In this document: piece by piece, positions 46,932 through 64,000 of the stretch
How the letters are laid out: each line of letters starts with the position of its first letter
Numbering within the stretch: position 1 is the stretch's first letter
DNA from: an uncultured Bacteroidales bacterium
GTDB taxonomy: Bacteria > Bacteroidota > Bacteroidia > Bacteroidales > JAADJA01
Assembly (NCBI GenBank): GCA_963840975.1
Contig: CAWJBC010000007.1
Location: forward strand, 20,136 to 84,135
Length of the DNA stretch: 64,000 nt
Direction of reading: 5' to 3'
Notes under the pieces: generated by a model
The model's input: the letters and a program-made list of their open reading frames with translations, nothing else
The model's database searches: none
What the model was told of the DNA's origin: nothing
Made by a program: the position numbers and the translations under genes

Positions 46932-46939
46932 TATTTTTG
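46932..46939 (+). promoter_or_regulatory. Candidate Bacteroidota -7 promoter box TATTTTTG
   Basis: It matches TAnnTTTG, 46 nt upstream of ATG 46985 and just downstream of element copy B. Confidence 0.3.
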
Positions 46940-46984
46940 CTTAAAGTAAAACAAAAGCAACATTTCAATCCAAATCAAATTGTT

Positions 46985-47908
46985 ATGAAAACACTGGTAA
47001 TTTTTAGCATCGTTATTCTGTTGGCGATGAAGGGATTTACACAGGAATGGGCTCCTGTTGGTGCAGCCTGGCACTATACTGAAAAATTCTCATTCTGGAG
47101 TTTAAATGATGAGGATTATATAAAATACGAATCAGAAAAGGATACGGTTTTCATGGGTATAAACTGTAAAAAAATAGTTAAGCGACATGATGTATATTGC
47201 TATCAAAGACCTGAAAATGAATTCATGTATTCAAATAATAACAAAGTATATTTTTATGATCCTTCCTTTAACGAATTCCAAATGATTTATGACTTTAACG
47301 CATCCCCGGATGAATCATGGGAAATCAGGATTTATGATATGCTTTATTCTGAAACTGATACGGTCAAAATTACCGTTGATTCTTCCAATTCAATCAACAT
47401 AAATAGCCAGAACCTAAAACGGCTTTATGTTACTTATGATTTTAATAATGAATCCATCATGCCATTCGTTTATCAATCAGTTATAATAGAATCCATTGGG
47501 GATATGACTTTCATGTTTAATTTCTTTCCCGAAAATGCTTTGGCTTGCGATGATAATGTCAGTGCTGGATTGCGATGTTATGAAGATGGCATACTTGGTC
47601 TTTATGAAACAGGAATAGCTGATTCCTGCACCTACATTCACGAATGGGTCGGAGTTGATCAAACCATGAAACCTAATTTAGATGTAGTTTTATTTCCCAA
47701 TCCGGCGAGCGACGTAATTACAATAAAACCAGGCACCCATGATATTGATTGGTTTAATTTGATAAACAGCAATGGGATTACCGTAAAATCAGGAAAATTG
47801 ACCAACCATCAGATACCCGTCAGAGAATTGAACAGGGGATTGTTCATCCTTGAATTATCGGATAGTAAATCGGGAGTTTTCGAGAGGCAAAAGATTTTAT
47901 TAAAATAA
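46985..47908 (+). CDS. Secreted T9SS cargo protein of unknown function
   Basis: Signal peptide (MKTLVIFSIVILLAMKGFTQ) and a type-A CTD (VVLFPNPASDVITIK ... GLFILELSD ... KILLK). Confidence 0.7.
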   Translation: MKTLVIFSIVILLAMKGFTQEWAPVGAAWHYTEKFSFWSLNDEDYIKYESEKDTVFMGINCKKIVKRHDVYCYQRPENEFMYSNNNKVYFYDPSFNEFQMIYDFNASPDESWEIRIYDMLYSETDTVKITVDSSNSININSQNLKRLYVTYDFNNESIMPFVYQSVIIESIGDMTFMFNFFPENALACDDNVSAGLRCYEDGILGLYETGIADSCTYIHEWVGVDQTMKPNLDVVLFPNPASDVITIKPGTHDIDWFNLINSNGITVKSGKLTNHQIPVRELNRGLFILELSDSKSGVFERQKILLK

Positions 47909-49008: not shown

Positions 49009-50142
49009 TCAAACAATATAAACTGATTTTTCTCCCGGGGCAATCACTTCTCCTACTACGCTGGTATATGAATATCCAGATTGTTTTAATTCTTCGATAA
49101 TACTATCCACATTTTCCGGTTTCACAGCCATTAACATTCCACCAGAGGTCTGAGCATCAGCTACGAGCATTTTATAGTTGTATTTCAAATCATGATCAAA
49201 GTTGACATCCTGTTCTGCAAATTCAAGGTTTCGGAAAGCAGCACCCGGAATACATCCCATTTCAATCAATTCAAACACTTTATCCAGAACCGGAACAGAT
49301 CGCGTGTTTATCTTTAGGGTAACCTTGCTTGCTTTTGCCATTTTGAGGGCATGACCCAATATTCCGAACCCTGTTATATCTGTCGCGCTTCTCACATTAT
49401 ATTTCTGCATCACGTCAGCAGCACTTCTGTTCAGGTGCTTCATGGTTTTAAGTGCAGACTGATATGTTTCTTCGTCGGCAAGATCATTTCTCCTTGCTGA
49501 AATAATTACACCTGTACCGATGGGTTTGGTAAGCAAAAGAACGTCGCCCGGTTGAGCGCCGGCATTGGTGATAATCTTTTCAGGATGCACCCAACCAGTG
49601 ACCGACAAACCACAGACCGGAACATCGTTGGTGATAGTGTGTCCGCCTACTATTACACCACCCGCTTCAACCACTTTATCCTGGGCGCCTCTTAATATTT
49701 CTTTTAAAACCTCCATAGGCAATGCCGCAGGGAACAAAATAATATTCAAAGCAGTAAGAACCTGTCCACCCATAGCATATACATCACTGAGGGCGTTAGC
49801 GGCAGATATTTGACCAAAATCATAAGGATCAGAACAAACCGGTGGGAAAAAATCGGTGGTCAGCACCAGTGCATAGTCATCCCGGATTTTATAGACTCCA
49901 GCATCATCATGGGTTTCGATATCAACCAATACATTTTCATTGGTTATTTTAGGAAGGTCAGCCAGCGCTTTGTTGAGTTCTGAAGCCGATAGTTTAGCGG
50001 AGCAGCCGCCCTGCTCAACGAGTTTAAGAAGGTCGAATTTTGAGTTCGAAGCTTGAGGTTCATCTCGCGTTGCGCGAGATGAAGTTGGTTCTGCGTTCCA
50101 GGTTTTGTGTCCCGGGTCGTGTGTTTCGGGTTCTGAGTTCAT
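49009..50142 (-). CDS. selD: Selenide, water dikinase (selenophosphate synthetase), Cys-type
   Basis: LVEQGGCSAKLS active-site loop with Cys (not UGA). AIR-synthase-like core (DDAGVY, TTDFF, DPYDFGQISAANALSDVYAMGG). It has a 35-aa low-complexity N-terminal extension. Confidence 0.9.
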   Translation of the reverse strand: MNSEPETHDPGHKTWNAEPTSSRATRDEPQASNSKFDLLKLVEQGGCSAKLSASELNKALADLPKITNENVLVDIETHDDAGVYKIRDDYALVLTTDFFPPVCSDPYDFGQISAANALSDVYAMGGQVLTALNIILFPAALPMEVLKEILRGAQDKVVEAGGVIVGGHTITNDVPVCGLSVTGWVHPEKIITNAGAQPGDVLLLTKPIGTGVIISARRNDLADEETYQSALKTMKHLNRSAADVMQKYNVRSATDITGFGILGHALKMAKASKVTLKINTRSVPVLDKVFELIEMGCIPGAAFRNLEFAEQDVNFDHDLKYNYKMLVADAQTSGGMLMAVKPENVDSIIEELKQSGYSYTSVVGEVIAPGEKSVYIV

Positions 50143-50185
50143 TGAATCTTTTCTATGATCTAAATCTAATTACTACCTATTAAGT

Positions 50186-50794
50186 CTACAAATTAACCAC
50201 TTTTCCAGCTTTCAGGATGCTGTCGAGTATCTCATACATGTTGGTAACCCTTCCAACTGCCAGTTGTTCAGTTTTTTCAAAGTAGTTGAGACAGGTTCCG
50301 CAGGTGATGATTTCCACTCCGCGTTTTTCAAGTTCGGTAAGGTGAACGAGCGCCGGTGCACCTTTCAAAACCAGGTTAATGCCTGCGTTCAGGAAAATGA
50401 TCTTTTGAGGCAGTACATCATATTCCTTAATTGTATTCAACATGCTGCCCGCCAGTACCAGACCCAGCTCATTATCGCCTTCGCCGATGCGGTCTTTTGC
50501 AAAAACGACAACATAACCCTTATCAACAGGAAGGGAGGTTTCGCAATAAGGTTCCACATCTGTCAGCACTGCTGCCTTCCCTGAATTATTCACAAGTATT
50601 TCAAACTCATTTCCATTTTTAGAATGTTCTGCTGCGATGCCATTGTCTTTCAGATATCGCATCACATTCTGAACTGCAGTTTCACTGTCGAGTATAACCT
50701 TTATTGAGCCATCACGTCCGAGTTCGTTTAATGCCTTTTTTGTTTCGATAAGCGGCATAGGGCATTTCTTTCCTTTTACATCAATTGTTTTCAT
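50186..50794 (-). CDS. yedF: Selenium metabolism protein YedF (TusA/SirA-like plus DsrE-like domains)
   Basis: MKTIDVKGKKCPMPLIETKKAL contains the CPxP motif. The C-terminal DsrE-like half lies between selB and selD. The start is taken at ATG 50794. Confidence 0.8.
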   Translation of the reverse strand: MKTIDVKGKKCPMPLIETKKALNELGRDGSIKVILDSETAVQNVMRYLKDNGIAAEHSKNGNEFEILVNNSGKAAVLTDVEPYCETSLPVDKGYVVVFAKDRIGEGDNELGLVLAGSMLNTIKEYDVLPQKIIFLNAGINLVLKGAPALVHLTELEKRGVEIITCGTCLNYFEKTEQLAVGRVTNMYEILDSILKAGKVVNL

Positions 50795-50802
50795 CAAATA
50801 TC

Positions 50803-52767
50803 TCAAATTTTGTTTATTAAATCTCTTCCTTTATCAGTAATATCAATAAAAAATGATCTTTTACTGATGATCCCTTCTTCCAGAAATATTCCCTGCAGGG
50901 TTTGCACAATTTTTTTTGTGCCATCTATCAGCAGCCTGAAATCCTTTTCGTTGATACCCTTTTCTTTGCTATTCAAGTCGGTGAGCAATATTTTTCTGCA
51001 TTTGTCCACTATGGAGTGATGCAAATAATCGCCATCAAAAAAGATGATTTTCTTTTGCCTACCAAGGTATTTCAACATCATTTTCAGGCGATCTTTTGGT
51101 ATTTTATTGTTTAATGCTTTTTCTTCTATTTCCGTATCAAGCGGATTCTCCATCCCACAACTTCTGATGGTTTGTTCGAGCCAACCCAATTGTTCCTGTG
51201 TTCTTTGGTCAATCTTTACAACATGATCCGCTAATGCCCATGAAAGTCCGGTCTTTTTTATTTTTCCCTGCTGTTGAAGAATTTCCAGAAGTTCTTCGAG
51301 ATATAACTTAGCAGCTTCGTTTTTGGCAAAACCCAACTTGCCATAAAATTCCTGTAATTCAAGCCCTTCCTCAAGTATGGGATTTTTGCTGTGCCATTGT
51401 GCTATTTCTTCCAATACATTCAGGGTATATTTTTCATGAGCTTCTCGCGTCAGGAGGATGGTTTTCCCTGCCATTTCAACCACGAAAATAGAATTGTCAC
51501 TGCTTTGTTTACAACCCTCTAATACTTCTGTTTCAGGCTTTGCTATTCTTTTTGAAATTATATCAGCATAAACCGGTGCATTTTCTTTTTTAAGTTCAAT
51601 TTTAATCAGGTTTGAAATCTTGTCGCTGTTCAGGGCAGCCTCCATCAAATCTTTCAGGTTGTCCAGCAATTGAATGGTTCGTTTTTTATGATGCAATGGT
51701 TGAACATCAATGATGGTTCCCCCTCCAAGGGTGATGTCGTTTGAGGAGTTCCTCACGATATATTTGTCTTTGTTTTCAAGGATAGCCGGTTTTTCAAGGT
51801 GAAGCTGAACAATGGCAGCTTCTCCGGGTTGAATAGTATCTTTGTTCAACAGGTGCATCCTTGCAGCACATTCAAATGTACCGGTATAAAAAACTACTTT
51901 CGACCATAATCCCAGCCTTGCATCCTCCCCGAACAAAGAAAATGACGCATCAATCATACTGGTTTCACTTATCATTTTGTCCGACAGCACCATTCCTCTT
52001 TCAAAATCCTCACCTTTGATTCCAGCCATATTAAGGGCAGCCCGGTCGCCGCAATAAACTTTGTTAACCGGATTGCCATGACGCTCCAAAGCGCGAATTT
52101 TCATTTTTTTGTTCTTGCCTGGTAAAAGAAAAACATCCTTTCCGATTTCAATCTCACCTTCCAGAACGGAACCGGTTACTACAAACCCTATTCCCCTCAC
52201 ATTAAAGATTCGATCAATATACATTCGGAAATGGTCTTTTTTCTCTCTTTCCTGAACGGTCGGAACGATCTCACTTATCTTTTCAATCATTTGGTCAATT
52301 CCTTTGCCCGTAAGGGAAGAAACCGGAATCACAGGAGCACCTTCGAGACAGGTACCTTCGATGAGTTCCTCAATCTCCAATTGTGCTAATTCCAGCATTT
52401 CGTCATCTACGAGGTCGGCTTTATTCAACGCTATTATTCCATGTTTTACACCTAACATTTCAATGATTTTCAGGTGCTCGGTAGTTTGGGGCATAATTCC
52501 GCTATCGGCTGCCACTACAAGCAATACGATGTCAATTCCATACGCCCCGGCTACCATCGTTTTGATAAAATCTTTATGACCCGGGACATCAACGATACCA
52601 AACGACTGTCCATCGGGAAGCGTGATGTGTGAGAATCCCAGATTAATGGTGATTCCCCTCTCCTTTTCCTCTTTGTGGGTATCACAGTCAATCCCTGTCA
52701 TCGCTTTGATCAACGCTGTTTTACCATGATCCACATGTCCTGCAGTACCGATGATAAGATGTTTCAT
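50803..52767 (-). CDS. selB: Selenocysteine-specific translation elongation factor
   Basis: GTPase motifs [18 protein letters not shown]. The long C-terminal winged-helix extension brings it to 654 aa. The start overlaps the selA stop (ATGA). Confidence 0.92.
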
Positions 52768-54181
52768 TCGCTTGTGGTTTTAACAAAGACTTCACCAGTA
52801 ATTTCAGCAAGTTCTTCCAATTGCGGATCAGTTAAGGTAAGCACATCAAAGTAAACATCGCCTTTGCGGAGGATGGCTACAACTGGATGATTATGCTGCA
52901 TTAAACCAGAATAGAGACTTTCGGCAAATTCCGATTTCTTTCGTTTCGATTCCAAATCTATTTCAATCCGTACGGCATAACTTTCAATTTCCTTGCCGGG
53001 CAAAGCGCCTCCACCGCATTGACCTTTGCTTTTCAACACTAAAGAATTGACCCCATATTTTGAAAACAAGTTCTTTAATGATTCTGCTCGGTTCATTAGT
53101 TCTTCCGGTTTCCGGCTCATCATATTAAAAAGAAGATTTCTTTTCAAAAGTGTCTCATCATCAAGATAGGAAAATAATGCAGCTTCCATAAAAGCCAAAG
53201 TTGTTTTTCCGACACGAAGCGCCCTTACAAGCGGTTCCTTTTTCAGTTTTGCGATATATTCTTTTTTACCTGCAATGATACCTGCCTGCGCCCCACCCAG
53301 CAATTTATCTCCGCTGAAACTTACCAGGTCAACCCCGGTAGCAAGAGTTTGCCTGACATCCGGCTCATCACCTAACACTTTTATTGAGGTTTTCCTTAGA
53401 AGCCCTGATCCCATATCGTACATTACCGGAACGTCTTTCTTTTTTCCCAAAGCAACCAGATCGGCAAGCTGAACCTCCTCAGTAAAACCCTGTATGGCAT
53501 AATTTGATTTATGCGCTTTCAATAGCAAACGGGTATCCTGAGTGATGGCTTTTTCGTAATCCTGTATTTTAGTCTTATTGGTGGTTCCCACCTCCACCAT
53601 ATTGCAATCGGATGCAACCATGATGTCGGGTAAGCGAAATGAACCGCCGATTTCGATCAGTTCTCCACGGGAAACGATTACTTCCTTCTCTTTCGAAAAT
53701 ACCCTCAAAACAAGCATGAGGGCAGCAGCATTATTGTTTACCACAAGCACATCTTCAGCTCCGGTAAGATATTTTAAAATTTCTGTCAGATGTGTATTAC
53801 GCGACCCACGCTCACCTTTCGATAAGTCAAATTCCAGGTTATTATAGCCTTTCAAAATTTCAGATGCTTCCGGATAATTTCATCGCTGAATGGAGCACGC
53901 CCCAGGTTGGTATGAACAACTATTCCGGTTGCATTGATTACATTTCGAAGACTTTTGGTTGTTAGTTTGTTTATTCGTAACTTAATCAGGAGTATAATTT
54001 CCTGAATTTGAGGAATTGATCCCGAAAGGCCAGCCTCTTCCCTCAATAAACTTAACGTCTTTCGAATGGAATATTTGACGAGATCTTCATTGTGTTGAAT
54101 CAATAAATCTTTAATCTCCGGTAAAAGAAGCAATTTATCCACACCGGGGAGATTTTTAAGATTATCTGAATTCGAATTCAT
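52764..54181 (-). pseudogene. selA: L-seryl-tRNA(Sec) selenium transferase with a 1-nt deletion
   Basis: The N-terminal frame (ATG 54181) gives ...VINATGIVVHTNLGRAPFSDEIIRK and stops at 53852. The next frame continues SEILKGYNNLEFDLSKGERGSRNTHL...SRGELIEIGGSFRLPD...SFSGDKLLGG (PLP Lys). Spacing to the LE(F/Y)DL block matches E. coli SelA if one base is restored near 53865..53866. Confidence 0.85.
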
Positions 54182-54197
54182 ATAATGAGGTTTGTTA

Positions 54198-54588
54198 TTA
54201 GTTGCTGGTTTTTTGTTGCTTGTTTGTTTTCCAATTGTCTTCAACATATTGTATGAATTTATTTATTTTCGTTCCCAGGATATCATATTTCTCCATAAGG
54301 TGGGTCAACGGTTGATCCTTAAAATGAATGTCACTTATCATATTTAATTGTGAAATTGTTTCATCACACGATCCTTGGGAATATGTTAAAAACCTTATAA
54401 AATCATCCTTATATCTCCTTCTTCCATACCCTTCAACAATTTGTGTCTTTAACGCTTTTACTTGATCTTCTGACCTGACTACCTTGTTCATATAGCTCAT
54501 ACTTTGGTAAGGTTAAACTCATTATATGAACTTCAATTGCCAATTTATATGCAATTTGATAGATTTCTAAATCCTTATAGCTTTTCAT
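54198..54588 (-). pseudogene. Four-helix-bundle protein (former 23S rRNA intervening-sequence / S23-like family) with a frameshift
   Basis: ATG 54588 gives MKSYKDLEIYQIAYKLAIEVHIMSLTLPKYELYEQGSQVRRSSKSVK, then a stop at 54433. The other frame continues TQIVEGYGRRRYKDDFIRFLTYSQGSCDETISQL. One extra base lies near 54445..54447. Confidence 0.7.
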
Positions 54589-54716
54589 ATCGTTTATTTC
54601 ATTTTGTTAAAAACAAGTAACGAGCAACAGCTATCAAAGATATTAAATAGAAATAAAAGGACAATTTCCAGTAAAGAAAATCAGGAATTTCAAAACGAGC
54701 AACCAGAAATAAAAAA

Positions 54717-54810
54717 GCAGAGAGGGCAGGGATCGAACCTGCCACAGCCGGTGTTATCCGTCTGCTACTGGTTTTGAAGACCAGGTGAGACACCAGTCCC
54801 GTCCCCTCTA
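54717..54810 (-). tRNA. selC: tRNA-Sec (anticodon UCA)
   Basis: Hand fold on the minus strand: 8-bp acceptor UAGAGGGG/CCUCUCUG (two G-U pairs), D-arm GGGAC-UGGU-GUCUC, and anticodon arm CUGGU-CUUCAAA-ACCAG (UCA). The variable arm is long (about 22 nt). The 5-bp T-arm is GCAGG-UUCGAUC-CCUGC, giving the bacterial 8/5 Sec geometry. CCA is not encoded and a T-run follows. The gene is adjacent to selA. Confidence 0.85.
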
Positions 54811-54903: not shown

Positions 54904-56697
54904 TTAACGCAACAATACCATTTTTTCGGTTCTGGACTGCTCGCCCTGACTGATCCTGAAAAAATAGAATCCATCCTTAACCAAATCACCGTTTTCGTAT
55001 GTTGCATCCCAGGTCACTGAATAACTTCCGGGTATTGCTACCTCGTTGACCAATTGTTTAATCACTTTTCCACTCAGATCATAAACAACGATCGTTACTC
55101 GTCCTGCATCTGTTAATGTATATTCAATGGTCGTTTGGCTGTTGAAAGGGTTGGGGTAATTAGAACCTCCAAAAAGTCCCGATATGGTTTCGCTAAGAGA
55201 AGTGGATGGATTATAACCCAAAAAAGTATTAACCATTTCTCCGACAAGGTATGCCCTTAAATTAAGAGAATCACCTGACGCAAGGGAAGCCAATATCACC
55301 GATGAAGAAATTGCACGGTAGCCTTCATCCTCTTTGATAAAAGATCTGCCAATGCCATCTTCGCTGCTGAACAAGAGGTTACTCCCGTTCGATTCAAGGT
55401 GGTCAACACTGAAATGCGGATCGTAACCGCCGAGTGATAAATAGGTCAAATCGGAAGCCATTCCACCAGGATTGCCTTTGATTTTTACTACTTCCTGTTC
55501 AGCACCATCACCTACATACATTAATCCCAAATCATCAAAGAACGCTGTGCCTGTATGATCCAAGCCAATATTTACACTTTCAAAATATAAACTACCGCCA
55601 TTTGCAAGATAATTTATCAGTTTATTCTGGTCTGCTACACTTGCAGAACCAGGAGGCGTAAGACCTCAGTCAACACAATAGCACCCCATGGTGCTAAACA
55701 CGATTTCATAGTCGTTCAAATTATCAGGCAAATAGGTAAAATATTCATACTCCAAACCGGCTTCTTCAAGGGCGCTTGTAAGCCCCTTGGATGGTTCAAT
55801 ATTATTACCCTTTTCAGGGTCAACAACGGTTTGAATGCCATTATCATTATCCCAGACAAGTATTTGGTAATCCACATCCGGCTCAATCCTTACAAAATAG
55901 CTTTTCGAAACATTATTGGTTTCAAACTGATCGCCATCCTTTATCACCACTCCATAAAAAGCAGTATTAAAGGCTGTAGAAGAACTCCAATCAAAGTCAA
56001 ACACCAAAGTCTGCTCGGGTTGAATGCTTCCGGAATTATCCAAACTTCCGATCAGATCGCCGGATTTAAGGCTAAAAAGCTGAACAGTAAAGTTTTCCGC
56101 TATTTCGCTGCCCAGGTTTTTCACTAACACACTCCAGGTTCCCGTTTCGAGTAGTTCAATTTTTGTCGGTCCAATGATGGAAGTAACCGTCAAATCATGA
56201 TCAAAAAATGCCGACATTTTTACATCGAAAATATCCCACCAGTTCCAGTTAAAGGTATCCTGCCCATAAGTCCGGAATTCGACCTGAACATTTTGGCCGG
56301 CAAAATCTTCAATAGGAAAGGATAATTCCACCCCGTTTCCGTTTCCCCAGTTTCCATTATTCAAATTATAATTCCACAGCACAGTGGTAACTCCATCCAC
56401 GATCAGATTGATTTCGGCGAATTCAGTTCCTGTTCCTGTAAACACATCCAAATATTGGTTGACAGTTAATTCATAAATATTTTCGGGAAGCGAGATAACC
56501 GGCGAAACAGCCGACAAATCAAATCCCGGTACCTGTGGGCTCCAGTAGAATTCAAGTTTACCTCCTGCAATGCTCCAGTTTTCCTCAAGCGACCATCCCT
56601 GACCATTTCCAAAACTCTCGGACCAGGTATAGGTCTGGGCAACTGCAGGCAGTTTGAAAATAAATATTAGCAATAACAAGTAAAGTAGTTTCTTCAT
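54904..56697 (-). CDS. Candidate secreted selenoprotein: signal peptide plus unknown domains plus CxxU site (UGA 55666..55668) plus T9SS type-A CTD, 597 codons
   Basis: ORFs 55666..56808 and 54904..55563 are in the same frame, with no stop other than one TGA between them (...EIVFSTMGCYCVD-UGA-GLTPPGSASVADQNKLINYLANGGSLYFESVNIGLDHTG...). The start is taken at MKKLLYLLLLIFIFKLPAVAQ (ATG 56697). The C-terminus NYPNPFNSQTTIEY...FYFFRI...MVLLR is a T9SS CTD that only makes sense if read-through occurs. A SECIS-like hairpin lies 13 nt after the UGA, and tRNA-Sec is 94 nt downstream. Confidence 0.6.
55627..55652 (-). promoter_or_regulatory. Candidate bacterial SECIS hairpin
   Basis: Minus strand: UGA, then 13 nt, then CUGGU(U)CUGC AAGUGUA GCAGACCAG. 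This gives a 9-bp stem with one bulged U on the 5' arm and a 7-nt apical loop containing GU, features shared with the E. coli fdhF SECIS. Confidence 0.55.
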
Positions 56698-57828: not shown

Positions 57829-58047
57829 ATGAATATTCAGGCTGAAAAATTGGAAATCATGAAAATGATACTCGATACAGAGAATCCATCATTGCTTCAT
57901 AAAATTAAAAGTTTATTTGTTAAAGAAAAAGATTTCTGGAATACTCTGTCGGATTCTGAAAAGGATGATATCAAGCAAGGAGTAGCTGACCTTGAAAAAG
58001 GAGCGACATTTCCCTATGAAGATGTCATGAAAAATCACCGGCAATGA
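57829..58047 (+). CDS. Type II antitoxin (putative addiction-module component)
   Basis: 72 aa and acidic. The N-terminal helix EKLEIMKMILDTENPSLLHKI is typical of the family. Its stop overlaps the toxin start (ATGA at 58044..58047). Confidence 0.55.
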   Translation: MNIQAEKLEIMKMILDTENPSLLHKIKSLFVKEKDFWNTLSDSEKDDIKQGVADLEKGATFPYEDVMKNHRQ

Positions 58048-58342
58048 GAAAAGTAGTTTTATCAAACAGAGCCAAAACAAAGCTAGAAAACTTACTTCTA
58101 TTTCTTGAGACTGAATGGTCGCTTTCCGTTAAAAATGAATTCATTGAAAGTTGGACCACACCTTGCAAATTATTCAAAGCAATCCTGAAAGTTTTCCAAA
58201 AACCTCAGTTCTGAAAGGTGTGCATAAATGTGTGGTCACCAAACATAATACGCTCTATTACCGATACACAACCTCATCCATCGAAATAATCACCATTTTT
58301 GATTCAAGACAGTATCCGGGTAAACTTAAGAAAGAGATTTAG
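58044..58342 (+). pseudogene. RelE/ParE-family toxin with a 1-nt frameshift
   Basis: ATG 58044 gives MRKVVLSNRAKTKLENLLLFLETEWSLSVKNEFIE. The next frame (58151..58342) continues LDHTLQIIQSNPESFPKTSVLKGVHKCVVTKHNTLYYRYTTSSIEIITIFDSRQYP. Adding one A to the A3 run 58147..58149 restores EFIEKLDHT. Confidence 0.65.
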
Positions 58343-58585
58343 CAGCGCCTGCACTTTGTAATATTTTGATAACAATTAAAACCATTAGTCTTTTTCACTC
58401 ACTGACCGGAATGATAACATTCAGGGTTTTTTGCTTGTATAAAATAACTTGAATCAATTATTTAGACTTAATATAAATATCAGCAATGTCCCTAAAAAAA
58501 GTTCAATAAATTTTTATTATCAGATTAAATAGTATTTACTTTGTGAAGTATTATTTAATTAAATGCTCTTTTAAAATAATAGTTT

Positions 58586-59140
58586 ATGAATAGAATGGGT
58601 GAACGGATAAGGGCTACGAGGGAAAATCTTGGCATTCAAGTCAATGACCTGGCAGGCTTAATTGGCGTTACACCGAGCCTGGTTTCACAAATAGAACGGG
58701 CTAAAGCATTTCCATCCATTTTAACTTTGAAAAAAATTGCAGATGCGCTGCAAACTACGGTTGGTGATCTAATTGGAGAAAATGCAACTTTCGTTGCAAA
58801 ACCATTTTTAAATGTTAAAGATCGAAAGTTTGTAAAGAAAAATAAAAAAGGGGCTAGCCTCTATTTGTTATCGCACCACGATCCAGTTAAACAAATGGAT
58901 CCATTTATCCTCCACTTCAAAATAAATGCTGACTCCACAGACATTATGACTACGGCTAACCCCAGGCAGGAATTCTGTTATGTACTTAAAGGACATTTTA
59001 AAGCTATTTTAAATACAACAGAATATGAATTGAAAGAAGGGGACAGTTTTTATTTTAATTCATCCCAATATTATTTATTCACAAATATTGGAAACGAAAG
59101 TGCAGAACTTTTATGGGTTGTTAATCAAATGAAAATTTAA
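58586..59140 (+). CDS. XRE-family HTH regulator with C-terminal cupin domain (PuuR-like architecture)
   Basis: HTH (IRATRENLGIQVNDLAGLIGVTPSLVSQIERAK) plus a cupin sensor half (GDSFYFNS..Y.FTNIG). It heads the catabolic cluster. Confidence 0.8.
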   Translation: MNRMGERIRATRENLGIQVNDLAGLIGVTPSLVSQIERAKAFPSILTLKKIADALQTTVGDLIGENATFVAKPFLNVKDRKFVKKNKKGASLYLLSHHDPVKQMDPFILHFKINADSTDIMTTANPRQEFCYVLKGHFKAILNTTEYELKEGDSFYFNSSQYYLFTNIGNESAELLWVVNQMKI

Positions 59141-59152
59141 ATAAAATTAAAA

Positions 59153-60742
59153 ATGAAATCAACAAATTTTGCCACAGGTTCAGTAACTCCTATTCAGCCG
59201 CCATCTTTGGACCAAATGATTGAACACTATCAATTTCCTGATGAAGTAAAAGAAGCTATTGAAAAAGAAAACTTATTGCCCTTTGGACTGGTCAACAGGT
59301 TGCACAAATGCTATCCACAACATTCGGGTTTTTTCAGAACCGATAAAGTTCTGTTTACTGGTAAGACTTATTATTCAGGACTGGAAGGATTCCGGGAAAT
59401 TATTAAAGTGTTGAACGAAAACGGAATTGATATTGGCTATATAAACGAGCGTGAGTTTTTCATTGATGTGTATCGTTTTTTAGCTACCAAACATGCCCTC
59501 AACATGATTAATTGGAATAATTATGTCAAAGACTCCATTTTCCAGTTGGTCTTTCCTCAACCCGGCATGATTTATAAGGAAGAAGTCCAGGTTTATATTG
59601 ACGCGAAGACGGATGAAGAAAGACAAATAGTGGTTAAGGAATACCAGAAAAAAACCAATCCTCATGATGGAAAACAAAAATTGAATAAGCCGTTTTTCAT
59701 CAATGATGAGGGTCAGATGGAAATCCTGCAGGGTGTCCAACATAAATACCCACCGGTAGAATTGATATTTGATAAAAGTACCCAAAACTGCTTTGCTTTT
59801 TGCACCTATTGTTTCCGTCATGCTCAGGTAAGGGGTGATGAAGATATGTTTGTTCAGGACGACATAAATCAGGTACACGCATACCTGAAGGAACACAAAG
59901 AAGTGAGCGATATTTTAATTACCGGTGGCGATGCCGGATTTATTGCACCTGAAAGGATGGAGCAATATGTGATGCCAATTATTGAAGATCCTGACCTGAT
60001 ACACATAAAAACAATCCGTTTCGGGTCAAGGGTATTAACTTTTCATCCTGAGTACTTATTAACTCCCAAATACAAAAAAATGATGGAGTTGTTAGGCAAA
60101 GCAGTCGAAAACGGAATACAGGTGGTTTGGGTTTCTCATTTTTCAACCCCCAGAGAAATTCTTAATCCAAGCACTGTGGCGGCAATACGCAGGCTAAAAA
60201 ATTATGGCATTGCCATTAAGAGCCAAAGTCCTATCATGAATCACGTTAGTTTATTTGAAGATGAAAACGGTAAAGTTTCCATTGACCGTTCAGCCCAAAA
60301 CTGGATTGACCTGGGAAATATTTTAGCAATGGTTGGTATTGGGTTTCATTCGATGTATTGTGCAAGACCTACCGGCGAACATCATTATTTTACTGCACCA
60401 TTGGCAGATATAAATAAAATCTTCAGCAAGGTTTATAGGTCATTGGCATCCATTAACCGTCCTTCCCGTTATATCACCATGACTTCTTCCGGAGGAAAAA
60501 CATCCCTCATGGGCACTGCCGAGATTGATGGGGAAACTGTTTTTGTTTTAAAATTTAACGAAGCCAGAAATATGGAATGGATGGATAAGGTTTTCCTTGC
60601 CAAATATGATGAAAAAGAAAATACCATTGAAAAGCTAAAGCCGATAAAAGGAAACAAACACTTTTATGAAGATGAGTTGGCAGAAATAGAGCAAAAGTTA
60701 GAAGATGCATTTATCAAAGAAATCAAAAAATCAGAAGTGTAA
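59153..60742 (+). CDS. KamA-family radical-SAM/PLP amino acid 2,3-aminomutase-like protein (529 aa, long N-terminal extension)
   Basis: CFAFCTYCFRH (CxxxCxxC), ILITGGDA, IRFGSR, HFSTPRE and a candidate PLP lysine in TSSGGKTS, colinear with lysine 2,3-aminomutase CSMYCRHC / LSGGDA / RIGSR / HFNHPNE / GGGGK. Confidence 0.8.
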   Translation: MKSTNFATGSVTPIQPPSLDQMIEHYQFPDEVKEAIEKENLLPFGLVNRLHKCYPQHSGFFRTDKVLFTGKTYYSGLEGFREIIKVLNENGIDIGYINEREFFIDVYRFLATKHALNMINWNNYVKDSIFQLVFPQPGMIYKEEVQVYIDAKTDEERQIVVKEYQKKTNPHDGKQKLNKPFFINDEGQMEILQGVQHKYPPVELIFDKSTQNCFAFCTYCFRHAQVRGDEDMFVQDDINQVHAYLKEHKEVSDILITGGDAGFIAPERMEQYVMPIIEDPDLIHIKTIRFGSRVLTFHPEYLLTPKYKKMMELLGKAVENGIQVVWVSHFSTPREILNPSTVAAIRRLKNYGIAIKSQSPIMNHVSLFEDENGKVSIDRSAQNWIDLGNILAMVGIGFHSMYCARPTGEHHYFTAPLADINKIFSKVYRSLASINRPSRYITMTSSGGKTSLMGTAEIDGETVFVLKFNEARNMEWMDKVFLAKYDEKENTIEKLKPIKGNKHFYEDELAEIEQKLEDAFIKEIKKSEV

Positions 60743-61458
60743 TGATAAACAAGATTGTTAAGTCGGCCAGTGATGCGGTTGCAGATATCTTTGACGGAGC
60801 AACTGTAATGATAGGTGGTTTTGGTGAAGCCGGTAGCCCTATCGAACTCATTCATGCATTAATAGATCAGGGTGCTAAGAACCTGACGGTGGTTAGCAAT
60901 AATGCGGGAAGTGGCAATGTAGGTCTGGCAGCCCTTATCGAAAACAGGCAGGTGAAAAAGATTATATGTTCTTTTCCCAGAACAGTTATATCAGTCGTTT
61001 TTCCTGAGATGTACCGCAATGGAGAAATAGAACTGGAGTTGGTACCCCAGGGTACGCTTGCAGAAAAAATAAGAGCCGGGGGGGCAGGTATTCCTGCTTT
61101 TTACACACCGGCAACAGTGAACACACCGCTTGCCAAAGGTAAAGAGACAAAAGTTTTTGATGGTCAAACTTATGTAATGGAGCATGCCATAAAAGCAGAT
61201 TTCTCATTGGTAAAATGCCATGCCGCCGACAAATATGGTAATCTGATTTATAATAAAACAGCAAGGAATTTTGGTCCGGTCATGTGTATGGCAGCGAAAA
61301 CTTCCATAGTTCAGGCGAAAAAAATTCTTGAGGTTGGACAGATTGACCCTGAGTGTGTTGTTACACCTGGAATTTTTGTAAAAAGAATAGTTGAAATTTC
61401 AAACCCTGCTGATGAATCTGTACTGGTAGCTGAAAAAAGGAGGTACCCATGGAATTAA
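60742..61458 (+). CDS. 3-oxoacid CoA-transferase, subunit A
   Basis: Typical family I CoA-transferase A N-terminus: KIVKSASDAVADIFDGATVMIGGFGEAGSPIELIHAL...NLTVVSNNAG. Confidence 0.88.
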   Translation: MINKIVKSASDAVADIFDGATVMIGGFGEAGSPIELIHALIDQGAKNLTVVSNNAGSGNVGLAALIENRQVKKIICSFPRTVISVVFPEMYRNGEIELELVPQGTLAEKIRAGGAGIPAFYTPATVNTPLAKGKETKVFDGQTYVMEHAIKADFSLVKCHAADKYGNLIYNKTARNFGPVMCMAAKTSIVQAKKILEVGQIDPECVVTPGIFVKRIVEISNPADESVLVAEKRRYPWN

Positions 61459-62102
61459 AAGAAAATAACGGATGGAACAATAAGGAAATGGCTCAAAAAG
61501 TAGCCAAGGATATACATGACGGAGCTTATGTTAATCTGGGTATTGGAATACCAGAAATGGTAGCCGGCTATATACCCGAAGGACGTGAAGTAATTTATCA
61601 TACCGAAAATGGATTGCTTGGAATGGGTAAAGTGGCAGAAAGTGGTTCTGAAGATTTTGAACTGGTTAATGCCGGTAAAAAATATGTGACCGCTATTCCC
61701 GGTGCCGCCTATTTTCATCATGCTGATAGTTTTGCCATGATACGAGGAGGGCATATTGATATTTGTGTTCTTGGAGCTTACCAGGTTTCGGAAGAAGGTG
61801 ACCTTGCCAACTGGTCAACTGGCGATGCCGATGCTATACCAGCTGTAGGTGGTGCGATGGATTTGGTTGCAGGCGTAAAAACAATTTATGTGATAACACA
61901 GCACAACACCAAAAGTGGTGAATCCAAAATTGTTAAAAAATGTACTTATCCCCTCACAGGCAAGAACGTAGTAAGCAGAATTTACACCAACCTCGCAATT
62001 ATTGATGTTGTTGATGGAAAATTGTTTGTAAAAGAAATGGCTCCGGGAATCACGTTCGACTATTTGCAGGAAAAAACGGAGGCTAAACTATATCAGAACT
62101 AA
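61449..62102 (+). CDS. 3-oxoacid CoA-transferase, subunit B
   Basis: Catalytic-Glu motif region HTENGLLGMG. It overlaps subunit A by 10 nt. Confidence 0.88.
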   Translation: MELKENNGWNNKEMAQKVAKDIHDGAYVNLGIGIPEMVAGYIPEGREVIYHTENGLLGMGKVAESGSEDFELVNAGKKYVTAIPGAAYFHHADSFAMIRGGHIDICVLGAYQVSEEGDLANWSTGDADAIPAVGGAMDLVAGVKTIYVITQHNTKSGESKIVKKCTYPLTGKNVVSRIYTNLAIIDVVDGKLFVKEMAPGITFDYLQEKTEAKLYQN

Positions 62103-62115
62103 AAAATTAAGCAGT

Positions 62116-63450
62116 ATGTCGCAAAATAGAAATAGCGAAGAAATATATAAGAAGGCGTGCGAAGTATTACCCGGCGGTGTTAGTAGAAATACGGTATATC
62201 GTAAACCTTTTCCGAACTACGCAGAAAATGCATCGGGATGTTATATAACGGATATTGAAGGGACTAAACGTATTGACTTCGCAAACAACATGGCTTCGCT
62301 CATTCATGGTCATGCCCACCCTGCAATAGTTGATGCGGTTATTCAACAGCTTAAAAAGGGAACTGCCTACACTATGGCAACCGAGATTGAAGTCGCCTTC
62401 GCACAACTTCTAACCAACAGGGCAAAGGGTTTTGAAAAAATCAGATTCGTAAACTCCGGGACGGAAGCTGTTATGGCTATGATTAAAACTTCAAGAGCAT
62501 TTACCGGACGTCCTAAAATTGCTAAAGCAGAAGGTGCTTATCATGGAACTTATGATTTTGCCGAAGTCAGTCAAACTGCAAATCCATCCAATTGGGGCGA
62601 GATTAACCAACCAAACAGTGTCCCGCTTGCTTTTGGAACACCCAAAGGGGTATTGGATGATGTATTGATAATTCCTTACAATGATACCGAAAGAACAATT
62701 GCAATTCTGGACAAACAAGCCGACCAGATTGCATGTGTATTGCTTGACCCTGTTCCGCATAGAATTGGGCTAATGCAAGGGGAAAGTGAGTACGTTGAGG
62801 CTATTTATAATTGGACTAGGAGAAACGGGGCTTTACTCGTATTTGATGAAGTAGTTACTTTTAGGGTGAATTATGGAGGTGCACAGGAAAAATACGCTGT
62901 AACTCCTGATATTACAGCATTGGGCAAAATAATAGGCGGAGGATTTCCTGTTGGGGCTATAGCAGGCAGGACAGATGTTATGAAAGTTTTGGATCTTCGC
63001 GAACCCAACCTGAAATTACCGCATTCGGGAACTTTCTCTGCCAACCCCATTACTATGACAGCCGGTTTCACAGCAATGGAATTATTTGACAGGGAAACTG
63101 TTTTGAAATTGAATGCTTTTACAAAAAGCGCCATCAATCAGATTGAAGACGTTATCAAACTTGTTGATGTTCCGGTATCCATTACTGGTGCAGGTTCAAT
63201 GTTTCGCTTTCATTTGATGCCCACCCCGCCAACAACTTATCGTGAAGCGTATCAAACAAAAGAAGTCGTTGGGGTTATTAAGGAACTGCTCGACTTTTTA
63301 TACTTTGAAGAAAATATATTGATGATTAATACTTTCGCTTGTATGTTCTCAACTGTTTTGACCCAAAAAGAAATTGATAAACTCTCCGAAGGATTAATGC
63401 GTGCTTTTAAAGCGCTTAAACCTAAAATCGAAAATTTACAAAAAGTATAA
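62116..63450 (+). CDS. Class-III PLP aminotransferase, glutamate-1-semialdehyde aminomutase-like
   Basis: PGGVSRN, FVNSGTEAVMAMIK, FDEVVTFR, and the PLP lysine in DITALGKIIGGGFPVGA, closely resembling the HemL pattern. Confidence 0.85.
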   Translation: MSQNRNSEEIYKKACEVLPGGVSRNTVYRKPFPNYAENASGCYITDIEGTKRIDFANNMASLIHGHAHPAIVDAVIQQLKKGTAYTMATEIEVAFAQLLTNRAKGFEKIRFVNSGTEAVMAMIKTSRAFTGRPKIAKAEGAYHGTYDFAEVSQTANPSNWGEINQPNSVPLAFGTPKGVLDDVLIIPYNDTERTIAILDKQADQIACVLLDPVPHRIGLMQGESEYVEAIYNWTRRNGALLVFDEVVTFRVNYGGAQEKYAVTPDITALGKIIGGGFPVGAIAGRTDVMKVLDLREPNLKLPHSGTFSANPITMTAGFTAMELFDRETVLKLNAFTKSAINQIEDVIKLVDVPVSITGAGSMFRFHLMPTPPTTYREAYQTKEVVGVIKELLDFLYFEENILMINTFACMFSTVLTQKEIDKLSEGLMRAFKALKPKIENLQKV

Positions 63451-63454
63451 AATT

Positions 63455-64000
63455 ATGAAGGAAGTTTTCATTTGTGATGCCATACGTACGCCGGTTGGGA
63501 AATACGGTGGAGTACTATCCTCAGTAAGAACTGATGACTTAGCAGCATTTCCTTTAAGTGTATTAATTGACAGAAATCCTGGAATAGACTGGCTGGATAT
63601 AGACGATGTAATATTGGGCTGTGCCAACCAGGCTGGTGAAGACAATCGAAATGTAGCCCGCATGGCGCTGTTACTTGCCGGTTATTCCGATACTATACCG
63701 GGTTCAACCGTTAACCGTTTGTGCGGTTCAGGTATGGATGCCATTGGAACAGCTGCAAGGGCAATTAAAGCTGGTGAAGCAAACCTGATTATTGCCGGTG
63801 GTGTCGAAAGTATGTCAAGGGCTCCATTTGTGATGGGGAAAGCGACCACCGCATTTTCAAGAGAAGCAGAAATATATGACACTACCATTGGATGGCGCTT
63901 TATCAATAAAAAACTCAAAGCTCAATATGGCACTGAATCAATGATTGAAACTGCTGAAAATATTGCCTCAGATTTCAAAATTAGTCGTGAGGACCAGGAT
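63455..64000 (+). CDS. 3-oxoadipyl-CoA/acetyl-CoA C-acyltransferase (PaaJ/PcaF-type thiolase), 5' part, runs off window end
   Basis: This ORF is not in the supplied track because it has no stop in the window. ATG 63455 gives MKEVFICDAIRTPVGKYGGVLSSVRTDDLAA...ILGCANQAGEDNRNVARMA...VNRLCGSGMDAI (active-site Cys)...GGVESMSRAPFVMGKA...ISREDQD. It is almost colinear with E. coli PaaJ as I recall that sequence. Confidence 0.9.
   Translation, partial: MKEVFICDAIRTPVGKYGGVLSSVRTDDLAAFPLSVLIDRNPGIDWLDIDDVILGCANQAGEDNRNVARMALLLAGYSDTIPGSTVNRLCGSGMDAIGTAARAIKAGEANLIIAGGVESMSRAPFVMGKATTAFSREAEIYDTTIGWRFINKKLKAQYGTESMIETAENIASDFKISREDQD

Follow-up and report, generated by a model that had tools for sequence, protein, structure and literature searches.

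The DNA analysed here (the window, 64,000 nucleotides (nt) from an uncultured Bacteroidales bacterium) carries at its 3′ end six close-set genes, all on the + strand and spanning positions 58586–64000, that encode an XRE-cupin regulator, a KamA-like radical S-adenosylmethionine (radical-SAM)/pyridoxal-5′-phosphate (PLP) protein, the two subunits of a coenzyme A (CoA)-transferase, an aminotransferase and a thiolase (Table 1). The last five genes form a cassette that, we propose below, may degrade 2-aminoadipate. A sequence-only reading of the window had described this gene content, order and spacing, all of which were borne out by the list of open reading frames (ORFs) and by direct reading (gaps of 12, 13 and 4 nt, overlaps of 1 and 10 nt), with each family confirmed by Pfam and NCBIfam models. 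The same reading had let the cluster continue beyond the window; only the thiolase gene does so, by ~220 codons, and the cassette ends at the thiolase. Gene calls at five other loci with the cassette (L001, L002, L091, L092 and L093) placed unrelated genes 3′ of the thiolase; in L001 and L002 these genes run in the opposite direction. A search for an exact copy of the window's aminotransferase, aimed at lengthening the contig, yielded no record.

Table 1 Features of the cassette and of the upstream selenocysteine-machinery cluster, in window positions.
Feature	Position	Strand	Evidence
XRE-family helix-turn-helix (HTH) + cupin transcriptional regulator	58586..59140	+	Pfam HTH_3, Cupin_2
Divergent KamA-like radical-SAM/PLP enzyme, 529 amino acids (aa); proposed L-2-aminoadipate 2,3-aminomutase	59153..60742	+	NCBIfam, PDB, Foldseek, motifs
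3-Oxoacid CoA-transferase subunit A (PcaI/ScoA family)	60742..61458	+	TIGR02429
3-Oxoacid CoA-transferase subunit B (PcaJ/ScoB family)	61449..62102	+	TIGR02428, HTENG
Class-III aminotransferase, β-amino-acid transaminase branch; proposed 3-aminoadipate:2-oxoacid transaminase	62116..63450	+	Pfam Aminotran_3, 6K8H
3-Oxoadipyl-CoA thiolase (PcaF/PaaJ type), N-terminal 182 codons; gene runs past window end	63455..64000	+	Thiolase_N, pcaF models
SelD-like AIRS protein	49009-50142	-	
SelB	50803-52767	-	
SelA, two ORFs, 4-nt overlap	52764-53855 + 53852-54247	-	
tRNA-Sec, anticodon TCA	54717-54809	-	

The cassette is conserved across bacterial phyla

A pattern scan covering one genome per GTDB species found relatives of the KamA-like protein encoded in 490 stretches (~490 GTDB species representatives), and 80 loci were fetched which, together with L001–L003, gave a set of 83. 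Searching with the six window proteins (tblastn), we observed the order KamA-like protein, CoA-transferase A, CoA-transferase B, aminotransferase, thiolase in 72 of 72 loci of sufficient length, the remaining 11 of the 83 ending at contig edges and standing outside this count. The gene set recognised in the window is thereby kept across several phyla, and the five-gene arrangement is far beyond chance. The fetched loci come from Bacteroidota, Ignavibacteria, Acidobacteria, Cloacimonadota, Deltaproteobacteria, Edwardsbacteria, Clostridia and Balneolales; the Bacteroidota carriers include Marinilabiliales, Lentimicrobiaceae, Rikenellaceae and Prolixibacteraceae, with the cultured genera Draconibacterium and Maribellus among them. 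Carriers are mostly anaerobic bacterial species, ~490 in number. Overall, we consider it very likely that these genes constitute a conserved, self-contained catabolic cassette.

The nearest relatives of the window's KamA-like protein belong to metagenome-assembled genomes (MAGs) of Marinilabiliales and Bacteroidales. A protein collection contained more than 1,400 relatives, the best 120 of which are 67–88% identical to the window protein, and members of the family are 65–88% identical across phyla. Identity of the aminotransferase does not follow that of the KamA-like protein: in L001, L004 and L007 the KamA-like protein is 84–87% identical to the window's, yet the aminotransferase just 62–63%, while in the more distant genomes of L006, L008 and L016 the aminotransferase is 79–83% identical. 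The cassette therefore appears to be mosaic, with two aminotransferase subtypes. At L001:11590-15606 (a relative 86% identical, from an ENA metagenome assembly), the gene calls are fragmented, with three pieces for the CoA-transferase region and two for the thiolase, which probably reflects assembly frameshifts rather than pseudogenes.

The KamA-like protein has the catalytic residues of a 2,3-aminomutase and lacks the lysine-binding site

The first enzyme of the cassette scored under the cutoff of the KamA family model (TIGR00238, 81.1 bits versus 199.2), and reached only 56–78 bits against the lysine, arginine, glutamate, AblA-like and EpmB models, whose cutoffs lie at 369–650. In particular, it failed the models for lysine 2,3-aminomutase (KamA/AblA, TIGR03820; 69.6 bits, cutoff 525.4), EpmB (TIGR03821; 56.2 bits, cutoff 369.3) and glutamate 2,3-aminomutase (TIGR04368; 57.4 bits, cutoff 650). 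Since every subfamily score is under its cutoff, the protein is neither EpmB nor a member of any curated subfamily; a grouping with the EF-P β-lysylation enzymes, which would have spoken against a catabolic role, was not seen, and the gene is locked into the cassette. By these models, the protein is placed as a divergent out-group of the curated KamA family.

Its sole PDB match by sequence was lysine 2,3-aminomutase (LAM, 2A5H). An AlphaFold2 model of the protein (predicted local distance difference test (pLDDT) 74.8, predicted TM-score (pTM) 0.77) also retrieved 2A5H as the top Foldseek match (E 1.7e-14, TM-score 0.61 normalised on the target), with the next radical-SAM match ten orders of magnitude behind (E 2.6e-4). 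The modelled fold is like that of lysine 2,3-aminomutase.

Residues were compared by aligning LAM, using a reference sequence that agreed with the PDB over all 416 residues, in two ways: with hhalign against the profile of the family (probability 97.9), and with MAFFT via 38 bridging relatives. The radical-SAM motif CxxxCxxC (C213/C217/C220, corresponding to LAM C125/C129/C132) was invariant in 27 family members. Also invariant, and placed identically by both alignments, were R222, which corresponds to the α-carboxylate arginine R134 of LAM, G258-G259-D260, which lies opposite LAM G170-G171-D172, and K449, which corresponds to the PLP lysine K337. In LAM, Asp293 and Asp330 bind the ε-ammonium group of lysine. 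D330 is replaced by T442 in the KamA-like protein, and D293 by A404 (hhalign) or R405 (MAFFT), both of which are invariant in the family, indicating that the lysine ε-ammonium site is gone and that a basic residue lies at or beside it. H410, H411, R436 and R439 are further invariant basic residues that, like R405, are candidates for binding a distal carboxylate group. The by-eye alignment made in the sequence-only reading was essentially right, with K449 opposite K337, T442 opposite D330, and A404 or R405 opposite D293.

Beyond the shared core, the protein has an N-terminal region of ~190 residues and a family-specific insertion. A search of 1.84 billion representatives showed that the family is one tight cluster, with a single full-length representative at 50% identity (892 bits), surrounded by an uncharacterised KamA-like radiation scoring 120–384 bits (among P0244–P0351). 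Ten of the ten radiation members scanned scored under every NCBIfam KamA cutoff, and 38 that were aligned (~390–610 aa) have the PLP lysine in all cases and the radical-SAM cysteines in nearly all. Most of the aligned members also carry an 'xRD-TG' motif that places an Arg in the LAM D293 column; being common to this large radiation, the Arg is weak evidence for an acidic substrate. We propose that the KamA-like protein may be an L-2-aminoadipate 2,3-aminomutase, a proposal that draws on the conserved LAM residues and the replaced Asp pair together with the genomic context described below.

The aminotransferase resembles transaminases of free β-amino acids

The aminotransferase (Pfam Aminotran_3) failed the HemL model (TIGR00713; 338.6 bits, cutoff 527.3). 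Its best PDB match was 6K8H (StoTA, the Sphaerobacter thermophilus omega-transaminase; 373 bits, ~50% identity over residues 8–395), followed by ForI with 312 bits; glutamate-1-semialdehyde (GSA) aminomutases reached at most 227 bits and β-phenylalanine transaminases 179–186 bits. With 6K8H and ForI outscoring all GSA aminomutases, the enzyme is not a bona fide HemL. StoTA is a characterised transaminase of free β- and γ-amino acids that accepts β-leucine, β-homoalanine and aromatic β-amino acids, and in which R36 is an active-site residue (PMC10589169, Fig. 7). R24 of the window enzyme is aligned with StoTA R36, and the class-III β-transaminase read from the window alone thereby gains a nearest solved relative that acts on β- and γ-amino acids. 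On this sequence evidence, the aminotransferase belongs with the transaminases of free β-amino acids (StoTA/MesAT type), and activity on 3-aminoadipate is predicted.

Kat, the 3-aminobutyryl-CoA transaminase of a variant lysine fermentation, is also described as 'HemL-like' (PMC3149608), and its sequence (CLOAM0809, EC 2.6.1.111) was therefore recovered for comparison from metagenome contigs via published primers (L086:2741-3985, 414 aa, both termini matching). The window aminotransferase was just 28% identical to Kat and is not its orthologue. A pathway in which the CoA ester is transaminated first, which would make the genes follow the order of the reactions, is accordingly less favoured, given 28% identity to Kat versus ~50% to a free-acid β-transaminase, and transamination of the free β-amino acid is the better reading.

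The CoA-transferase and thiolase resemble β-ketoadipate-type enzymes

CoA-transferase subunit A passed TIGR02429 (351.7 bits, cutoff 128.5) and stayed under the AtoD cutoff (205 bits versus 315), with B. subtilis ScoA as its best PDB match (3CDK, 227 bits). Subunit B passed TIGR02428 (307.9 bits, cutoff 243.55), and its ORF translation contains the catalytic-Glu motif HTENG. By these scores, the enzyme is assigned to the PcaIJ/ScoAB family and not to AtoDA, the models not separating PcaIJ from ScoAB; of the classes considered in the sequence-only reading, AtoDA is thereby set aside.

The thiolase fragment in the window matched Thiolase_N and scored 332–342 bits against pcaF models over 181 of 400 model positions (TIGR02430 331.8). 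A full-length orthologue from another locus (L002:14281-15483, 76% identical to the fragment) cleared the 3-oxoadipyl-CoA thiolase equivalog TIGR02430 with 649.1 bits (cutoff 597), in agreement with the PaaJ/PcaF type first assigned to the fragment. The top two PDB matches of this orthologue were a thiolase (8GQH, 532 bits) and a β-ketoadipyl-CoA thiolase (6PCA, 528 bits).

Lysine-pathway genes adjoin the cassette in two phyla

Clustering of all flanking ORFs within 10 kb at 81 non-duplicate loci showed only two kinds of recurrent metabolic neighbour, a 513-aa aldehyde dehydrogenase and proteins of the saccharopine-dehydrogenase family. In 20 Prolixibacteraceae-type loci, those of the cultured Draconibacterium and Maribellus among them, the aldehyde dehydrogenase is encoded immediately 3′ of the thiolase and in the same direction; it scored as an L-piperideine-6-carboxylate (P6C) dehydrogenase (804 bits, cutoff 730). 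The product of P6C dehydrogenase is L-2-aminoadipate. An aldehyde dehydrogenase 5′ of the cassette in L091 (Lentimicrobium) was considered as a further P6C dehydrogenase and rejected (223 bits versus the cutoff of 730).

Saccharopine-dehydrogenase-family proteins are encoded near the cassette in 24 loci, and genes of this family flank the Prolixibacteraceae-type loci that have the P6C dehydrogenase. In D. orientale, whose KamA-like protein is WP_217642890.1, a divergent gene of this family is followed by the five cassette genes, the P6C dehydrogenase gene and a second saccharopine-dehydrogenase-family gene, whose product matched 1E5L, a saccharopine reductase, with 228 bits and human AASS, in its saccharopine dehydrogenase (SDH) domain, with 209 bits, and the Sunxiuqinia loci have an additional gene like that of lysine-ketoglutarate reductase (LKR). 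In two Cloacimonadota loci, a saccharopine dehydrogenase and a protein of the AlaDH fold are encoded 5′ of the cassette on the same strand; the latter matched the LKR domain of human AASS with 271 bits, and in L074 the LKR gene ends 13 nt before the start of the KamA-like gene. Judged by these assignments, the cassette is physically joined in two phyla to enzymes leading from lysine to aminoadipate semialdehyde or 2-aminoadipate. With lysine-pathway neighbours at the entry and a 3-oxoadipyl-CoA thiolase at the end, the simplest connecting chemistry is the degradation of 2-aminoadipate, the substrate that the sequence-only reading had put first and that here gains independent support from the P6C dehydrogenase, the saccharopine-pathway neighbours and the PcaF-passing thiolase orthologue.

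A candidate route from 2-aminoadipate to succinyl-CoA and acetyl-CoA

In the proposed route, lysine would reach L-2-aminoadipate through saccharopine or piperideine-6-carboxylate and would then pass through 3-aminoadipate, 3-oxoadipate and 3-oxoadipyl-CoA to succinyl-CoA and acetyl-CoA. The KamA-like enzyme would move the amino group from C2 to C3, converting 2-aminoadipate to 3-aminoadipate, presumably by the mechanism of lysine 2,3-aminomutase, in which a 5′-deoxyadenosyl radical acts on the substrate-PLP aldimine. The β-transaminase would then convert 3-aminoadipate to 3-oxoadipate with 2-oxoglutarate or pyruvate as acceptor, and the PcaIJ/ScoAB-type transferase would form 3-oxoadipyl-CoA and succinate from 3-oxoadipate and succinyl-CoA. 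Finally, cleavage of 3-oxoadipyl-CoA by the PcaF-type thiolase would yield acetyl-CoA and succinyl-CoA, regenerating the CoA donor. In net terms, C6 would become C4 + C2 with no redox step and no decarboxylation, and the branch through 2-oxoadipate dehydrogenase and glutaryl-CoA dehydrogenase would be bypassed or replaced.

We infer the substrate and every reaction from the observed gene content, family placement, catalytic-motif conservation, fixed gene order and lysine-pathway neighbours, and on balance we find it reasonably likely that the cassette degrades 2-aminoadipate by this specific route. Several points weigh against it. With 18% identity to LAM and a score under the KamA family cutoff, the KamA-like protein is highly divergent; the confidence of its structural model is moderate, the two alignments are one residue apart at the D293 position, and the Arg in that column, being widespread in the uncharacterised radiation, does not single out a dicarboxylate substrate. 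At the other end of the route, PcaF-type thiolases and ScoAB-type transferases accept other 3-oxoacyl substrates too. Lysine-pathway neighbours were seen at 24 of the 83 loci, all from two lineages (Prolixibacteraceae-type and Cloacimonadota); no homologue of P6C dehydrogenase, saccharopine dehydrogenase or LKR was found in the 64-kb window, the closest relatives likewise being without such neighbours, and no P6C dehydrogenase was seen beside the Cloacimonadota cassettes.

The foremost alternative keeps the enzymatic logic and changes the substrate to another α-amino acid, such as leucine (Poston's β-leucine route, to isobutyryl-CoA and acetyl-CoA), 2-aminobutyrate, norvaline, methionine or another lysine-derived intermediate. 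The sequence from α- to β-amino acid, β-keto acid, CoA ester and thiolysis is indeed substrate-agnostic, the range of StoTA extends to β-leucine, β-homoalanine and aromatic β-amino acids, and the active-site Arg is not specific to the family. However, the thiolase and CoA-transferase fall in dicarboxylate/short 3-oxoacid families and not in branched-chain ones, genes for branched-chain acyl-CoA metabolism do not recur in the flanks, and the gene context favours 2-aminoadipate, so that we regard another amino acid as rather unlikely.

Alternatively, the KamA-like protein may not be a 2,3-aminomutase at all and may perform other radical-SAM chemistry, with the cassette degrading a β-amino or β-keto acid of external origin. 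Its low score against the KamA model, its low identity to LAM, its N-terminal region and family-specific insertion and its membership of a wide uncharacterised radiation would all agree with this, but the [4Fe-4S] cysteines, the GGD motif, the α-carboxylate Arg and the PLP Lys are all invariant, and strict co-linearity with a β-transaminase gives an aminomutase an obvious role. We consider such a different chemistry distinctly unlikely.

Glutamate, the second substrate named in the sequence-only reading, would be converted by the same logic to β-glutamate, 3-oxoglutarate and 3-oxoglutaryl-CoA, yielding malonyl-CoA and acetyl-CoA, or would lead by decarboxylation to acetoacetate, acetoacetyl-CoA and two acetyl-CoA. 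A radical-SAM glutamate 2,3-aminomutase, reportedly described by Ruzicka and Frey in 2007, sets a precedent, an NCBIfam model of it (TIGR04368) exists, and loss of the lysine-binding Asp pair with an invariant Arg in or adjoining the D293 column would suit this substrate, as would the action of ScoAB-type transferases on acetoacetate and the lack of a lysine-pathway neighbour in most loci, the window included. Against this stand the failure of the KamA-like protein at that very model, the thiolase orthologue that clears the 3-oxoadipyl-CoA thiolase equivalog, a cassette without a malonyl-CoA or 3-oxoglutarate decarboxylase, and sole recurrent metabolic neighbours that make 2-aminoadipate or its semialdehyde; glutamate is therefore an improbable substrate.

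A biosynthetic direction, from succinyl-CoA and acetyl-CoA through 3-oxoadipate and 3-aminoadipate to 2-aminoadipate for lysine or secondary metabolites, is highly improbable. In its favour, all four kinds of step (thiolase, CoA-transferase, transaminase and aminomutase) can in principle run backwards, saccharopine enzymes also serve fungal lysine biosynthesis, and an aspartokinase is encoded divergently upstream in L080. Against it, the linked P6C dehydrogenase belongs to the NAD(P)+-dependent aldehyde dehydrogenases, and its formation of 2-aminoadipate is in effect a one-way reaction; the recurrent neighbours included no Lys2-type aminoadipate reductase, and regulators of the PuuR-like XRE-cupin kind typically go with catabolic operons. 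Because these rivals fit the thiolase family and the neighbouring genes less well, degradation of 2-aminoadipate is the best explanation for the cassette.

Regulator and upstream region

The regulator combines HTH_3 (residues 8–61) and Cupin_2 (residues 125–179) domains in a PuuR-like architecture, its match to the PuuR model being weak (52 bits, cutoff 211). Orthologues lie immediately 5′ of the cassette on the same strand in 19 fetched loci, and the XRE-cupin protein probably senses a small-molecule ligand and controls the operon. A scan for sigma-70 promoters and terminators, which does not cover Bacteroidota promoters, gave no signal clearly over shuffled controls, and no inverted repeats 5′ of the regulator stood clearly over such controls.

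At some loci, a PurE-like gene (AIRC domain) is found immediately 5′ of the KamA-like gene on the same strand, as in L091:9510-9992 (Lentimicrobium) and L002:9425-9910 (an Acidobacteria MAG), a layout common to five loci; it scored 141.6 bits (purE cutoff 149.6) and in L091 sits between the XRE-cupin regulator and the cassette. In the window, inspection by eye revealed two short ORFs with a 4-nt overlap (57829-58343, + strand; ATGA at 58043) between an NmrA/epimerase-like gene and the regulator, in a layout typical of toxin-antitoxin pairs, the second frame of which may be interrupted.

Other features of the window

Just upstream of this region, on the - strand, lies a complete selenocysteine-machinery cluster (49009-54809; Table 1), in which the split selA suggests a frameshift or an assembly error. 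The protein encoded at 46937-47908 has a type IX secretion system (T9SS; Por) C-terminal sorting domain detected by Pfam, and a T9SS sorting domain is apparent by eye in the protein encoded at 54904-55563, both in keeping with an origin of the DNA from Bacteroidota.

Comparison with known systems

In full-text literature, with subscription journals thinly covered, we found no 2-aminoadipate 2,3-aminomutase, 3-aminoadipate pathway or gene set of this kind, and NCBIfam (June 2026) contained no model for the KamA-like family. RefSeq labels the Draconibacterium KamA-like protein 'hypothetical protein', and proteins of the cassette are also labelled 'L-lysine 2,3-aminomutase (EF-P beta-lysylation pathway)' in older records and 'glutamate-1-semialdehyde 2,1-aminomutase'. 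Whether the cassette represents an undescribed branch of lysine catabolism, with a new family of L-2-aminoadipate 2,3-aminomutases in ~490 species representatives of anaerobic and facultative bacteria, is to our mind evenly balanced. If so, radical-SAM aminomutases would gain a new substrate class and a highly conserved new subfamily, 3-aminoadipate would gain a physiological role, and the missing downstream half of lysine/2-aminoadipate degradation in anaerobes would be tied to β-ketoadipate end-steps. Widespread annotations would also be corrected, and the enzymes run in reverse could serve bio-based production of C6 dicarboxylates or β-amino acids.

Lysine fermentation, known from Fusobacterium, Clostridium and Cloacimonas, employs KamA, KamDE, Kdd, Kce, Kal or Kat, AtoDA and a thiolase (PMC3149608). 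It shares with the cassette a start of the radical-SAM/PLP 2,3-aminomutase type, a HemL-like class-III aminotransferase in one variant, a CoA-transferase and thiolase end, and an occurrence in anaerobic digester-type Bacteroidota and Cloacimonadota. In contrast, the cassette aminomutase lacks the lysine-binding Asp pair, its aminotransferase is distant from Kat and its thiolase is of the PcaF and not the acetoacetyl-CoA type. The absence of kamDE, kdd, kce and kal noted in the window extends to the flanks, KamDE, Kdd, Kce and Kal (or Kat) being absent among the recurrent neighbours within 10 kb at the 81 non-duplicate loci, a clustering in which these families were not sought individually.

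With the lower β-ketoadipate pathway (PcaIJ transferase and PcaF thiolase), the cassette shares the enzyme families of the last two steps, its transferase subunits passing the PcaI/ScoA and PcaJ/ScoB cutoffs and the thiolase orthologue the PcaF equivalog. However, the classical pathway is fed by aerobic aromatic ring cleavage, whereas in the cassette, whose carriers are anaerobic or facultatively anaerobic, the supply would come from an amino acid by way of aminomutase and transaminase. The saccharopine/2-aminoadipate pathway proceeds through the LKR and SDH activities of AASS, ALDH7A1/P6C dehydrogenase, 2-aminoadipate transaminase, 2-oxoadipate dehydrogenase and glutaryl-CoA dehydrogenase. 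Its upper part has counterparts in the LKR, SDH and P6C dehydrogenase genes beside the cassette in Prolixibacteraceae and Cloacimonadota, while its downstream half would be replaced, without 2-oxoadipate, glutaryl-CoA or decarboxylations, so that the products would be succinyl-CoA and acetyl-CoA rather than two acetyl-CoA and two CO2.

At the level of single enzymes, the glutamate 2,3-aminomutase Eam of Clostridioides difficile is a KamA-family precedent for an acidic substrate, its lysine-binding Asp pair being replaced by Lys and Asn. The cassette protein differs in having Ala/Arg and Thr at those sites, in its score far under the TIGR04368 cutoff, in its length (529 aa, including an extended N-terminal region and a family-specific insertion), and in its place within a catabolic operon. 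The aminotransferase is comparable to the β-transaminases of the GSA-aminomutase-like branch, StoTA (6K8H), MesAT (2YKU) and the Variovorax enzyme (4AO9), most clearly through its StoTA match and the R36/R24 correspondence; unlike them, its predicted substrate is an aliphatic dicarboxylic β-amino acid, and its own family, 73–88% identical, is without a characterised member. Taken together, we rate the theme, aminomutase-initiated amino-acid catabolism joining β-ketoadipate end-steps, as known, and the aminomutase subfamily as new.

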